Positions 24,143-28,105 of a DNA stretch of 64,000 bases are shown here, one piece after another. Numbering within the stretch: the stretch's first letter is position 1; each line of letters begins with the position of its first letter. The stretch covers positions 18 to 64,017 of the forward strand of contig JACQCH010000057.1 in the NCBI GenBank assembly GCA_016201735.1, in the 5' to 3' direction. The notes below the pieces were generated by a model, which ran no database searches, was not told the DNA's origin, and saw only the letters and a list, made by a program, of their open reading frames with translations. The translations under genes and the position numbers were made by a program. The stretch is from Candidatus Omnitrophota bacterium (GTDB lineage Bacteria > Omnitrophota > Gorgyraeia > 1-14-0-20-64-10).

Positions 24143-26677
24143 CTACACGACGACGTTGACGAGGCGGTTGGGGACGACCACCATCTGCTTGGGCGGTTTA
24201 CCGTCGAGCCACTTCCGGACAGCTGGATCGGCGAGGACCTTCGCCTTCAAATCCTCGCTGCTCGAGCCGGCCGGAACGGTGAGACGGGAGCGGACCTTCC
24301 CGTTGACCTGCACGACCAAGGTCACTTCCTTCTCTTCAAGCAGGGCGGCCTCATAAGCCGGCCAAGATTTGCCGGCCAGCATTTCTCTGTGTCCGAGCCG
24401 GGCCCAAAGTTCCTCGGTCATGTGCGGCGCAAACGGATTGAGCAGATGGACCAGCGCCTCCACCGCCCCGCGAACATCGGGGCCGGACCCTTGAGCGGCG
24501 CTTTTCTCAATGGCGCTTCGAAACTCCATGAGAGCGCTGATCGCCGTGTTGAACTTGAACGATTCCAGATCCCCGGTGACCCTCTTGATCGCGGCGTGGG
24601 TAACGCGGCGGAGTTGAGCGGTCCGGTCACCCTGAGGCTCTCGAAGGGTGATCGGCCTGGTTCGTCCTTCGACAGGCTCAGGACGAACGGGCACGGACCC
24701 GGCCGCGATGACACTTTCCACCAACTCCCAGACCCGATTCAGGAACCGCCAGCTTCCGTCGATCGCATTGTCATTCCATTCCAGCGAATCCTCGGGAGGT
24801 GCCGCGAACAGGATGAACAGCCGCAAGGTGTCGGCCCCATAACGCTGGATCACCCCATCGGGGTCGACGACGTTTCCCTTCGACTTGGACATCACCTCCC
24901 CTTCCTTCAAAACCATTCCCTGCGTGAGCAGTCGGGCAAACGGCTCGTCCAGCTTTAAAAGCCCGATGTCCCGCAGAAACTTGGTGAAGAAGCGGGAATA
25001 TAAAAGGTGCAGGATCGCGTGCTCGATCCCGCCGATGTATTGGTCCACCGGCATCCAGAATTCCGCCTCCTTCGGGTCGAAAGGGAGCGTCGACTCTTTC
25101 GGGGAGCAGAACCGGAGGAAATACCAGGAGGAATCGAAGAAGGTGGCCATGGTGTCGGTCTCCCGGCGGGCCGGTTTGCGGCAGCGGGGGCAGGTTGTTT
25201 CAACAAAACTCTTCATCTTCCCCAAGGGTGACCCCCCCTCGCCGGTGATCGAAACTTCTTTGGGCAGGATCACCGGCAACTGATCGTCGGGGACGGGGAC
25301 CACGCCGCAGGCGGAACAGTAAATGATTGGGATCGGTGTCCCCCAGTACCTCTGCCGGGAAATCAGCCAGTCCCTCAGCCGCCAGTGGATGGTCCGCTTA
25401 CCCGTTTTCTTTTCTTCCATCCAGGCAGCGATCCTTCTCTTCCCCCCGGTGCTGGGCAGTTCGTCGAACTGGGCGGAATTGACCTGTGTTCCTTCCCCTT
25501 CAAAGGCCTCGGACCAACTTTTCGGATCCGGATCTCCCTCGGGCGGCCGGATCACGACCCGGATCGGAAGTTTATGCTCCCGAGCGAACAGAAAGTCCCG
25601 CTGGTCATGCGCGGGGACCGCCATGATCGCGCCGGTGCCGTATTCCATCAGGACGTAATCGGCCACCCAGATCGGGACCACTTCCCCGTTGACCGGATTG
25701 ATGGCGTATCCTCCGGTGAACAACCCTTCCTTCTTGACTCCCTCAGCGGCCCGGTCCTGTTTGCTCCGGCGGGAGACCCGCTCAACGAATTGGCGAACTT
25801 GCGCTTCCTGCGGTTTGCCTCGGATCAGTTCCTCAACGAGCGGATGTTCGCAGGCGAGCACCACGTAGGTGGCCCCGAAGATCGTGTCCGGCCGGGTGGT
25901 GAAGACCGGGATTCTCTTCCCCGAATCCTGCACCGGTGAACCGGCCTGCACGGTGAACCAGATCTCGACCCCTTCGCTTCGGCCGATCCAGTTCCTCTGC
26001 ATCGCAATGACCCGCTCCGGCCAATCGGAGAGTTTTCCCAAGTCGGCAAGAAGCGGCTCGGCGTAGGCGCTGATTTTCAGGAACCACTGCTCCAGCTCCT
26101 TCGGCTCGACGGCCGTCGAGCAGCGCCAGCAGTTTCCTTGGATCACCTCCTCGTTGGCCAGGGTGGTTTTACAGCTCGGGCACCAGTTGACCGCAGCACC
26201 CGCCCGGTAGGCCAGCCCCTTCTCGAACATCTTGAGGAAGATCCATTGATTCCACCGGTAATAGGCCGGATCGCAGGTGGCAACTTCCCGGTTCCAGTCG
26301 TAGGAGAAACCGAGCCGCTTGAGCCCCTCCCGCATCTGCTGAACGCAGCGATCCGTCCAGGTGGCCGGATCGACTCCTTGCTTGATCGCCGCGTTCTCCG
26401 CCGGCTGGCCGAAGGCGTCGAATCCCATCGGGTGCAGGACCCGGTACCCCTGGGCGAAGCGGAACCGGGCCAGGACGTCGCCGATCGTGTAGTTGCGGAC
26501 ATGCCCCATGTGGATCCGCCCCGACGGGTACGGGAACATCTCGAGGAGGTAATATTCCCTCTCCCGGTACCGGGTACCCTCCGCGGTACCCGGTACCGGG
26601 CTGATGGCCCGGAAAACGCCGGCCTCCTCCCACCGCCTCTGCCACTTGGGCTCTATCTCGTTAAAGGGGTAACTCAT
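24143..26677 (-). CDS. leuS: Leucine--tRNA ligase
   Basis: 844 aa; [12 protein letters not shown] (HIGH-class), KMSKSKGN, CP1 editing domain. Confidence 0.97.
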
Positions 26678-26741
26678 CGTCGAGAACTGATTCTAGCATG
26701 CCGCGGGAAAGATTGACAATGTGAGGGCCGTCCCGGTAGAC

Positions 26742-27521
26742 TTAGAGCCGAGAAATTAACGTGGGGCCGTGGCGTAGCGGGAGCGCACCGCGATGGCATC
26801 GCGGAGGTGAGAGTTCAACTCTCTCCGGCTCCACCATCTTTAAAGCTTCTTCTCCCAAACTCTGCAGGGTAAATTGCAGAGTTGTACTCGAATACTGAAC
26901 GGCACAAACTCCCTTATAATCCTGGCGTTTGGTTATTTTCCCCATCGTGCGCAAATCAGGTTTTCGCCGATAGAAATGACTCTCTGGAATTCCGGTAACT
27001 TTAGACCAATACTGAATAAGTAATTTTTGAGATTGATCGCATCGATGTCCCACTTCTCCGCGCAATCTCTGTTCATCAATAACAAAATACGTTCGTAGCA
27101 ATTGAAGGAAGAATCGAATCATCTGCGGATCAGAGTTCCCAAAACGCATTCCTTGGGTCGAAGGATACTTGGCCCCTTCACAGATATAAAGCAGAGCGCA
27201 GAGCAATTTCCCTAGAACGGGGGAAAGTGTAACATTTTGAACTATAGCTCGAACTTCCTCGCGTATTCCTTGTTTCCAATCCTCTATCTTTTTCCGATTA
27301 GCAATCACAGCAAGTGGCTGCCCGATTCGAGCTGCCGCCACAACTCGGGAATGGATTCGGTTCCTGGCTTCCGTCGAAAGCGAAACAGATCTTACCCATC
27401 CTTGCACCGTCGTTTTTGGAACGTGAAGTTGGACGCTCAATTCATCCAGAGAATACCCCTTCCGACGAAGCTGGATCGCCTGCATTTTGATTTCAGGAGG
27501 ATATCGCTGATATACAGACAT
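26742..27521 (-). CDS. Low-GC (~42%) foreign gene with N-terminal HTH, possibly a degenerate homing-endonuclease/transposase-like protein
   Basis: GC drops sharply from ~62% to ~42%. HTH segment GYSLDELSVQLHVPKTTVQGWV; possible degenerate LAGLIDADG-like motif LLCALLYICEGAKY. The C-terminal ~31 codons are antisense to tRNA-Ala. Confidence 0.5.
   Translation of the reverse strand: MSVYQRYPPEIKMQAIQLRRKGYSLDELSVQLHVPKTTVQGWVRSVSLSTEARNRIHSRVVAAARIGQPLAVIANRKKIEDWKQGIREEVRAIVQNVTLSPVLGKLLCALLYICEGAKYPSTQGMRFGNSDPQMIRFFLQLLRTYFVIDEQRLRGEVGHRCDQSQKLLIQYWSKVTGIPESHFYRRKPDLRTMGKITKRQDYKGVCAVQYSSTTLQFTLQSLGEEALKMVEPERVELSPPRCHRGALPLRHGPTLISRL
26763..26836 (+). tRNA. tRNA-Ala (anticodon GGC), CCA encoded
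   Basis: Manual fold: acceptor GGGGCCG/CGGCTCC with G3:U70 Ala identity pair, D stem GCGT/GCGC, anticodon stem CCGCG/CGCGG with loop AUGGCAU, T loop TTCAACT, then ACCA. Confidence 0.85.
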
Positions 27522-27586
27522 AAGTATACTATACCAGACTTCTTACCTTTGTCAACGTGAAGTAATATAATGAGTCCACACTTTTT

Positions 27587-27670
27587 GCCGAGGTGGCGAA
27601 ACCGGCAGACGCGCGAGCCTCAAAAGCTCGTGAGGGCAACCTCATGAGAGTTCGATTCTCTCCCTCGGCA
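27587..27670 (+). tRNA. tRNA-Leu (anticodon CAA), long variable arm
   Basis: Manual fold: acceptor GCCGAGG/CCTCGGC, anticodon stem CGAGC/GCTCG with loop CUCAAAA, variable arm TGAGGGCAACCTCA, T arm GAGAG-TTCGATT-CTCTC. Upstream TATAAT at 27566. Confidence 0.85.
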
Positions 27671-27718
27671 CAACACAGGCGAGGCCCGTTTACGGGAAAA
27701 TCAGAATGGAGAAGATAA

Positions 27719-28105
27719 ATGCCGACATTTAAACCGAAGATTCTGGTGGTGGATGACGAGGAGGAAGCCCGGACCGGGCTGGCCCGGAGTCTCCGTTCGA
27801 AAGGCTACGACGTTCTGGAGGCCGCGACGGGCGGCGAGGTGGTTGCCCGGGCCAAGGCGGAGTGGCCGGCGCTCATCATTCTGGACATCGTTCTGCCGGA
27901 TCTGCCGGGCACCGAGGTGTTTGAATCCCTCCGGGCCGATCCGATCACCAAAGCGATCCCCGTCCTCCTGTTGACCGCGAAACCGGACATCGTCGCGCAG
28001 GTTCCTGCGGTGCGTGAAAAGTCGGAGCAGTATCGTTTCTTGGAAAAACCGGGGCGCATTGAGGATCTGCTCAAGATCATTCAGGAGATGCTGACCGGAA
28101 AATGA
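27719..28105 (+). CDS. Stand-alone response-regulator receiver (CheY-like)
   Basis: VVDDEEE...ILDIVLPD (phospho-acceptor Asp)...LLLTAK. Confidence 0.8.
   Translation: MPTFKPKILVVDDEEEARTGLARSLRSKGYDVLEAATGGEVVARAKAEWPALIILDIVLPDLPGTEVFESLRADPITKAIPVLLLTAKPDIVAQVPAVREKSEQYRFLEKPGRIEDLLKIIQEMLTGK

Follow-up and report, generated by a model that had tools for sequence, protein, structure and literature searches.

Gene organization at the locus

The window analysed here is a stretch of 64,000 nucleotides (nt) from a Candidatus Omnitrophota bacterium (assembly GCA_016201735.1, contig JACQCH010000057.1). This report concerns a 259-codon open reading frame (ORF) in it, located between the genes for tRNA-Ala(GGC) and tRNA-Leu(CAA), and the gene family to which the ORF belongs. 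The tRNA genes that ARAGORN detects in the window number exactly two and share the plus strand; Rfam shows no other RNA family near them. The locus is composed of the following features; empty-site relatives are those that lack the ORF.

24143..26677, minus strand: leuS, encoding leucyl-tRNA synthetase (LeuRS); the syntenic anchor, near the ORF/tRNA pair in most Omnitrophota loci
26742..27521, minus strand: ORF of 259 codons, between tRNA-Ala(GGC) and tRNA-Leu(CAA)
26742..26837, minus strand: non-conserved read-through tail of the ORF, residues 229-259 and the stop codon, antisense to the whole tRNA-Ala
26763..26836, plus strand: tRNA-Ala(GGC), CCA encoded (ARAGORN; Rfam, 60.5 bits); constant partner of the gene family
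26837..27586, no strand assigned: segment of 750 nt, replaced by 7-12 nt in the nearest empty-site relatives (locus comparison)
26838..27521, minus strand: conserved protein core of 228 residues (homologue alignment; typical family length about 225-230 amino acids)
27587..27671, plus strand: tRNA-Leu(CAA) (ARAGORN; Rfam, 55.5 bits); directly downstream of tRNA-Ala in empty-site relatives

An initial annotation, made from the sequence alone, had described a low-GC ORF between the two tRNA genes that runs antisense over the whole tRNA-Ala. ARAGORN, the GC profile and the ORF coordinates all agree with this description. Calculated over 200 nt at a time, GC drops from 0.60-0.67 to 0.42-0.48 across positions ~26800-27600. 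The conserved core of the ORF has a GC of 0.45 and a third-codon-position GC (GC3) of 0.40, compared to a GC3 of 0.74-0.79 for leuS and three other neighbouring genes. Because GC3 of the conserved part is also low, the drop does not stem from amino-acid composition.

Read on the opposite strand, the final 31 codons with their stop codon correspond to positions 26742-26837, which hold the entire tRNA-Ala and 21 nt upstream of it. The stop codon itself (26742-26744) adjoins the −10 box of the tRNA-Ala promoter. Alignment of the homologues indicates that conservation ends at residue 228, which is the exact start of the tRNA, with its encoded CCA, on the opposite strand. Several close homologues also have antisense-tRNA tails, of differing length and variable sequence, and the AlphaFold2 (AF2) model shows the window's tail as disordered, with a predicted local distance difference test (pLDDT) score <50. 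Unconserved, variable in length and disordered, the tail is therefore read-through and does not represent functional dual coding. As had been proposed, one piece of DNA does specify both the tRNA and the end of the protein; the 31-residue tail is incidental read-through of a gene without a stop codon of its own.

The window copy carries the consensus residue at 39 of 40 positions conserved across the family, the exception being L for I at position 28, and every near-invariant polar residue is kept. Given this conservation, together with the 35 homologues and 3,428 matching clusters described below, the ORF is a real, intact gene and not a chance frame.

A gene family adjoining tRNA-Ala(GGC)

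In the protein search, 35 homologues were retrieved; the best E-value was 1e-98 and the typical length ~228 amino acids. A profile of the C-terminal domain matched 3,428 clusters at 50% identity, 1,469 of them at E ≤1e-10. All database names seen for family members are "hypothetical protein", mostly of the Patescibacteria group. Two sets of loci (L numbers) were collected for genomic context. A scan of species genomes gave 36 loci, mostly labelled Candidatus Omnitrophota, with several labelled Planctomycetia/Planctomycetales or "bacterium". A metagenome scan with a distant subfamily (35-45% identical), whose database entries are Patescibacteria, gave 80 loci positioned in tRNA arrays. Loci with enough sequence beyond the gene were considered informative.

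The position of the gene is nearly constant. A tRNA-Ala(GGC) gene is found at its 3′ end in all 34 informative Omnitrophota loci, at a median of 13 nt from the domain end, and in 72 of the 74 informative Patescibacteria loci, where it is on the same strand at a median of 2 nt. Combined, 106 of 108 informative loci adjoin tRNA-Ala(GGC), the constant site expected of a free-standing homing endonuclease gene. In Omnitrophota, tRNA-Leu(CAA) and leuS are usually close by. The upstream neighbour in Patescibacteria is variable (mostly Arg(CCT), also Lys, Glu and Val), as is the downstream neighbour, and only the pair of the gene and tRNA-Ala(GGC) is constant in these arrays. The stop codon falls within the tRNA in 52 of 69 co-directional Patescibacteria junctions, and in 25 of the 52 it is a TAG or TAA at tRNA positions 8-10.

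Paralogues adjoin other tRNA genes, each with its own partner: Arg(CCT) (L089, L094), Gly(GCC) (L112, L114, L116), Trp(CCA) (P0168) and Met(CAT) (P0035, the most distant match of the first search). The same Patescibacteria arrays also contain genes with an XRE-type helix-turn-helix (HTH) and a double LAGLIDADG domain (PF14528, 32-34 bits), which end at or inside tRNA-Ser(CGA), as well as HNH endonuclease-like genes of ~160 amino acids that end 3-12 nt ahead of tRNA-His(GTG).

L052 2147-3172; L096 1003-2055 (minus strand); L115 4308-5405: canonical HTH + LAGLIDADG genes at tRNA-Ser(CGA)
L060 1137-1616; L076 1-462; L115 207-695: HNH endonuclease-like genes at tRNA-His(GTG)

Full-text literature searches found nothing on the family or on protein genes abutting tRNA-Ala(GGC). 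Where the retrieved papers mention homing endonucleases of these bacteria, they are only those in rRNA introns.

Two further features of these loci were observed. A 178-amino-acid ORF without a Pfam match (L125, 620-1156) overlaps the 5′ part of a tRNA-Thr(GGT) gene at 1113-1185; it was not detected by the hidden Markov model of the family, and its contig also carries the Trp-linked family member. In nearly all Omnitrophota loci (L001-L036 and the window), leuS and tRNA-Leu(CAA) are neighbours, linking the synthetase to its own tRNA gene.

Occupied and empty sites among close relatives

The locus in close relatives was retrieved via LeuRS homologues at 70-81% identity. Five members of the window's clade have an occupied site (the window, L001, L119, L122 and L128) and five an empty one. 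In L117, the nearest relative by LeuRS (81% identity), tRNA-Ala is followed by 12 nt and then tRNA-Leu, with no ORF. The Ala-Leu spacing in the other empty sites is 11 nt (L121), 7 nt (L124), 35 nt (L123) and 170 nt (L118), and none of the five empty sites contains an ORF remnant. Given the tight spacing of 7-12 nt in L117, L121 and L124, the nearest relatives found, the gene is an insertion/deletion polymorphism located precisely between the two tRNA genes, which supports the initial annotation on this point. Occupied and empty states are interleaved on a LeuRS neighbour-joining tree, which has short internal branches and places nine of the ten occupied or empty loci; L128 lacks leuS sequence and was left out.

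Degraded copies were found as well. L036 has an internally deleted remnant beside tRNA-Ala, and the frame is broken in L017, L023, L026, L033 and L034, some of which could be explained by assembly errors. Occupied and clean empty alleles among close relatives, together with degenerate copies, are the pattern expected of a homing gene. The type of tRNA-Ala D-arm showed no clear association with occupancy.

Omnitrophota have four layouts (ORF drawn on the plus strand), which match the clades seen in the tree of LeuRS.

Leu(−) ORF Ala(−): window, with the rest of its clade
ORF Ala(−) Leu(+): most frequent of the four
Leu(−) ORF Ala(+): Omnitrophota
ORF Ala(+) Leu(+): Omnitrophota

Adjacency was kept at each inversion, the tRNA flipping in place. 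This inversion of tRNA-Ala relative to the ORF is seen between the Omnitrophota clades of L001-L036. We speculate that the 7-bp inverted repeat of the acceptor stem may have been the recombination site for it.

In the 170-nt spacer of L118 (4692-4861), between tRNA-Leu and tRNA-Ala, the last 20 nt of tRNA-Ala (GATCCCCCTCAGCTCCACCA) recur as a direct repeat beyond an insert of ~125 nt. This looks like the att-like scar of another element, unrelated to the ORF family.

Protein architecture

The protein is composed of an N-terminal HTH, a long helix at residues 50-95 in the AF2 model, and a C-terminal domain of about 130 residues.

27390..27497, minus strand: N-terminal HTH, residues 9-44, homeodomain-like / transposase PAI type (Pfam HTH_23; AF2 helices 9-42)
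26838..27236, minus strand: C-terminal alpha/beta domain, residues 96-228, ~130 residues (AF2 pLDDT 90.8)
27165..27206, minus strand: LLCALLYICEGAKY motif, residues 106-119, site of the sub-threshold LAGLIDADG_3 matches

The N-terminal HTH had been anticipated, and Pfam confirmed it: HTH_23 matches residues 11-44 above threshold (25.4 bits against a cut-off of 24.6, E 1.2e-5). The same family is matched by 30 of the 35 homologues, and among PDB sequences the family profile matches the PAI subdomain of Sleeping Beauty (E 9.7e-5). When the full protein was compared to Pfam, NCBIfam and PDB, the HTH was all that matched. Pfam, NCBIfam and PHROGs give HTH matches only and none to an integrase, a resolvase or a DDE catalytic domain; with PHROGs and PADLOC, no phage or defence family was seen.

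The C-terminal domain is highly conserved. Across 272 sequences, E115, G116, K118, R160, D162, Q163, W172, D189, R191, Y202 and G204 are 91-100% conserved, with W172 at 100%, Y202 at 99%, G116 at 98% and E115 at 98% (plus 1% D). The near-invariant polar residues look like those of an enzyme active site. Readings of the conserved R/K/H/W/Y residues as a tyrosine recombinase or HUH enzyme were rejected: the domain is too small, the topology differs and there is no profile support. A DDE/RNase-H reading was ruled out by topology.

E115 and G116 are part of a motif with the family consensus L-Y-L-[GCA]-E-G-[SA]-K (LLYICEG in the window copy), which closes helix 101-114 of the AF2 model. An acidic residue followed by glycine at a helix end is a LAGLIDADG feature. 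Of all Pfam families, LAGLIDADG_3 (PF14528) alone has recurrent matches to the C-terminal domain, in 5 of 34 diverse members, always at the motif and below the cut-off, with a best E of 0.0042. The window's domain scores 13 bits (E 0.13) against PF14528, below the cut-off of 22.5 bits. The full-length protein has no LAGLIDADG match in Pfam, including PF14527, the LAGLIDADG-like domain of WhiA, the family profile found no LAGLIDADG sequence in PDB, and a broader profile of the C-terminal domain had no PDB match at all. The possible degenerate LAGLIDADG-like motif of the initial annotation thus coincides with a recurring, sub-threshold Pfam match; structural and profile confirmation did not follow.

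Low GC content as a family trait

ORF GC3 is below leuS GC3 in 23 of 24 Omnitrophota loci. In the four occupied high-GC relatives the ORF has a GC3 of 0.40-0.55 compared to 0.72-0.86 for leuS, and the proteins have diverged to 54-68% identity. Because the deficit persists despite this divergence, low GC is not evidence of recent arrival. In view of the near-universal deficit and the tracking of LeuRS by the ORF (Mantel r = 0.82; see below), a recent transfer from a low-GC donor was rejected, and "foreign", in the sense of newly acquired, is not supported. Instead, the gene appears to escape whatever keeps host GC3 high, as expected of a weakly expressed or selfish gene.

Expression signals

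Three promoters or promoter-like sequences were located around the ORF.

26713..26742, plus strand: sigma-70-like promoter of tRNA-Ala, TTGACA, 18-nt spacer, TAGACT (promoter scan)
27528..27555, minus strand: ORF promoter, TTGACA, 16-nt spacer, TG-n-TATAGT (promoter scan; 11 of 12 consensus matches)
27543..27571, plus strand: possible tRNA-Leu promoter in the inserted segment, TTACCT, 17-nt spacer, TATAAT (manual reading; not reported by the scan)

The −10 box of the ORF promoter ends at 27528, 7 nt ahead of the ATG at 27521, and there is no Shine-Dalgarno sequence; a leaderless mRNA is therefore predicted. The TATAGT-ATAC(A/T)T-ATG layout is kept in L119 and L122 and is similar in L001 and L128. 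No terminator follows the 3′ end of the ORF, so its transcription would go antisense through tRNA-Ala and the tRNA-Ala promoter, towards leuS. The same tRNA-Ala promoter is present in relatives, including those with empty sites, and a −10-like box at the position of the possible tRNA-Leu promoter also occurs in occupied relatives.

Upstream signals of the ORF differ by clade (L002-L034). Promoters of the leaderless type occur in the co-directional clade as well as in that of the window. In the commonest Omnitrophota clade the ORF is preceded by a Shine-Dalgarno sequence and by a TTACGTCTATTATTATAGG box, which is conserved.

A proposed homing-endonuclease-like selfish gene

We tentatively read the ORF as an intact, long-resident copy of a tRNA-gene-associated, homing-endonuclease-like selfish gene family, an interpretation that we place a little short of an even call. 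The argument for a selfish, homing-like origin, and probably for such a function, is built on the site-specific adjacency, the occupation of other tRNA genes by paralogues and by LAGLIDADG and HNH genes, the empty and degraded sites, the codon composition and the conserved core. Judging from sequence and predicted structure, the protein is most likely a site-specific DNA endonuclease of the free-standing homing kind, possibly a very divergent LAGLIDADG enzyme. It would combine a transposase-like HTH, a long helix and a 130-residue domain with active-site-like polar residues. The tRNA-Ala(GGC) gene would be its anchor or target, allowing the gene to stay at, and re-enter, the site by that tRNA gene. 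In the putative ancestral layout, seen in Patescibacteria and one Omnitrophota clade, the gene would lie in the 5′ leader of the pre-tRNA without a spacer, be expressed from the tRNA transcript and often have its stop codon inside the tRNA. Since processing releases the tRNA from its transcript, a site directly ahead of it would do the host no harm. The pair appears to have been rearranged in the window's clade, such that the gene would be transcribed antisense into the tRNA 3′ end from its own leaderless-type promoter and, having no stop codon of its own, would be read through the whole antisense tRNA.

Several results weigh against this reading. Profile and structure searches did not establish a nuclease fold or family for the C-terminal domain. 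All Pfam LAGLIDADG matches are below threshold, and there is no significant match to PF00961, PF03161 or PF14528. The AF2 topology is alpha-beta-alpha-beta-alpha-beta-alpha, not alpha-beta-beta-alpha-beta-beta-alpha, with single strands where LAGLIDADG enzymes have hairpins and with a 40-residue insertion. Foldseek comparison to PDB (full and domain models) and to BFVD (domain model) gave no significant match and no LAGLIDADG protein at E <1; the best Foldseek matches, to the OmpA-like YfiB (TM 0.4), were rejected as meaningless. Alignment with hhalign to three canonical LAGLIDADG proteins of the same arrays gave a probability of 1.5%, although a thin profile makes this a weak test. The gene is consequently not classed as a LAGLIDADG enzyme, its membership being unproven. 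No cleavage site or target was identified, and two scans of viral contigs found no family members.

The history of the gene also argues for caution. Within Omnitrophota, divergence of the ORF follows that of LeuRS (Mantel r = 0.82 between their distances, 0 of 5000 permutations), the layouts are clade-specific and there is no direct evidence of recent horizontal movement. Incongruence between gene and host phylogenies, as expected of a homing gene, was thus not found. From the tracking of LeuRS and the clade-wise layouts it follows that the gene has long been at the locus and that the pair was inverted a few times, while occurrence in two distant phyla implies an old transfer. Finally, the zero-length spacer alone could freeze an old adjacency, because no rearrangement breakpoint would be tolerated between the two genes. 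The association could then be partly inherited and not targeted.

Alternative explanations

A serious rival, which we consider rather unlikely, is that the gene encodes a domesticated, lineage-specific DNA-binding regulator of the tRNA-Ala / tRNA-Leu / leuS locus, with the adjacency reflecting cis-regulation and old synteny. WhiA, described below, would be the model for such a change of role. The HTH is real, inheritance is largely vertical with LeuRS, and the gene is kept near leuS and tRNA-Leu(CAA). The ORF promoter overlaps the divergent tRNA-Leu promoter region in the window, and structure and profile searches detected no nuclease fold. However, a regulator would not be expected to be dispensable in the nearest relatives, where the empty sites are clean, to exist in degraded copies or to retain a GC3 far under that of its host. 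The near-invariant E, K, R, D, Q, D, R and Y resemble a catalytic site rather than a scaffold, and neither the zero spacer nor the isoacceptor-specific paralogues at five or more different tRNAs would be explained by regulation. Another alternative is an RNA-directed function, in which the protein would process, modify or protect tRNA-Ala(GGC) or its precursor and adjacency would reflect obligatory co-transcription. Each subfamily has one isoacceptor, and in the ancestral layout the ORF would be the pre-tRNA 5′ leader, with nucleotides in common with the tRNA. We nevertheless regard this function as improbable. At its N-terminus the protein has a transposase-type HTH, which is a DNA-binding domain, and neither Pfam nor NCBIfam detects a domain for RNA binding or modification. 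In the window and in 24 of 34 Omnitrophota loci, gene and tRNA are convergent and hence not co-transcribed. Relatives without the gene keep the tRNA, and tRNA-Ala(GGC) is also common among bacteria of phyla other than the two in which the family was found.

The initial annotation had proposed a selfish element, either homing-endonuclease-like or integrase-like. The first option fits the site specificity, empty sites, degraded copies and codon composition. The second, in which the segment is the remnant of an integrase-mediated island whose insertion rebuilt the tRNA 3′ end, is very improbable as an account of the locus. It is suggested by the position straight after the CCA end of tRNA-Ala, and the 20-nt repeat around a different ~125-nt insert in L118 shows that att-type events take place at the site. 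For the window copy, integrase-type insertion is effectively excluded: there is no recombinase domain in the ORF or beside it, and the window lacks a second copy of the tRNA-Ala 3′ end. A search of 26400-28000 for att-like direct repeats of that end found none, the only tRNA-related repeat being the T-arms of the two tRNAs, and no terminal inverted repeats were found around the insert. The insert is also a single gene, and most family members adjoin the 5′ end of their tRNA, not the 3′ end. We give as little credence to a dying or non-functional ORF whose overlap with the tRNA is a chance open frame. The unconserved, predicted-disordered 31-codon tail and the broken copies in some relatives would fit decay, which had also been raised at the outset. 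However, the window copy is full-length and intact at 39 of 40 conserved positions, its promoter has 11 of 12 consensus matches, and homologues are conserved across two phyla; for this copy, decay too is effectively excluded.

Implications of the proposed selfish tRNA-gene habit

The habit of this family is new: it is isoacceptor-specific, leaves no spacer and borrows its stop codon from the tRNA. The catalytic domain may be new as well. A bolder form of the selfish-gene interpretation, which we find somewhat doubtful, is that the family comprises previously unrecognised selfish enzymes that target tRNA genes with a new or divergent nuclease domain, one subfamily per isoacceptor gene (Ala-GGC, Arg-CCT, Gly-GCC, Trp, Met), with a host unable to silence them and RNase P removing the stop codon. 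As the gene would form the pre-tRNA 5′ leader in the ancestral layout, silencing it would cost the host the tRNA. With the stop codon cut off by RNase P, full protein would be made only from unprocessed precursors, while processed ones would go to trans-translation.

If this form is correct, a large unannotated guild of selfish genes resides in the tRNA genes of Patescibacteria and Omnitrophota, exploiting tRNA processing to make insertion harmless, as a counterpart of the endonucleases carried by introns in rRNA genes. The subfamilies would then be natural DNA-recognition modules, each for its own highly conserved sequence of 70-80 bp, relevant to the evolution of target specificity and possibly to engineering. 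Thousands of "hypothetical proteins" would gain a context-based annotation. ORFs that end in a tRNA raise the testable question of how translation and RNase P processing compete. Gene callers that extend family ORFs across tRNA genes, as in the window, could be corrected.

Comparison with known systems

Phage T4 SegB is a free-standing GIY-YIG homing endonuclease encoded in the T4 tRNA gene cluster (PMC2330249). Its recognition site includes the conserved T-psi-C stem-loop of the tRNA, and it drives the inheritance of itself and of neighbouring tRNA genes (PMC2330249). As a single gene lodged between tRNA genes, SegB is the best functional analogy for a selfish gene anchored on tRNA genes. It differs in being a GIY-YIG enzyme on a phage genome, whereas the present family lacks GIY-YIG, is chromosomal and is absent from the viral contigs scanned. 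The present family is also tied to one isoacceptor without a spacer and is mostly vertical, and its cleavage activity is only inferred.

LAGLIDADG homing endonucleases, free-standing or intron-encoded (PF14528, PF00961, PF03161), resemble the family in a motif at a helix end; in the family, its acidic residue and glycine are 98% conserved, and the sub-threshold PF14528 matches fall there. The LAGLIDADG genes at tRNA-Ser(CGA) in L052, L096 and L115 also have an HTH and the same habit of abutting the tRNA 5′ end. The present family is set apart by its sub-threshold scores, its predicted single strands instead of hairpins, its 40-residue insertion and the negative profile-profile comparison. WhiA is a bacterial LAGLIDADG + HTH protein that was domesticated as a transcription factor. 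It has two degenerate LAGLIDADG domains and a C-terminal HTH, and has lost the catalytic acidic residues. Like WhiA, the present family combines an HTH with a homing-endonuclease-like domain and is chromosomal and vertically inherited. In contrast, its domain is single, its HTH is N-terminal and its acidic residue is near-invariant, and it is dispensable among close relatives.

Islands and prophages with tyrosine integrases resemble the family in that a tRNA gene marks the site and presence/absence is polymorphic. The present gene differs in having no integrase or att duplication, in being a single gene and in its ancestral site, the tRNA 5′ end. In mitochondrial tRNA punctuation, coding sequence abuts a tRNA with no stop codon encoded before the boundary, and the mRNA is completed by polyadenylation. 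The coding sequence of the family likewise abuts a tRNA with no stop before the boundary, and a tRNA-processing cut would define the mRNA end. Here the setting is bacterial, and RNase P cleavage would leave a non-stop mRNA.

Other repeats at the locus

The T-arms of tRNA-Ala (26808-26826) and tRNA-Leu (27645-27663) have 17 of 19 nt in common (TGAGAGTTCAACTCTCTCC and TGAGAGTTCGATTCTCTCC), a similarity that forms a direct repeat on both sides of the inserted gene. The 5′ coding region of leuS contains a perfect 16-nt inverted repeat (CCCGGTACCGGGTACC / GGTACCCGGTACCGGG) at window positions 26563-26600. Further along leuS, LeuRS residues ~722-745 (window ~24440-24510) include a 22-residue segment in a loop of variable length, which among 15 relatives is shared by L121 only and may be a repeat-derived in-frame insertion. 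Similar-looking repeat DNA is present in L128 between the tRNA-Ala promoter and leuS.

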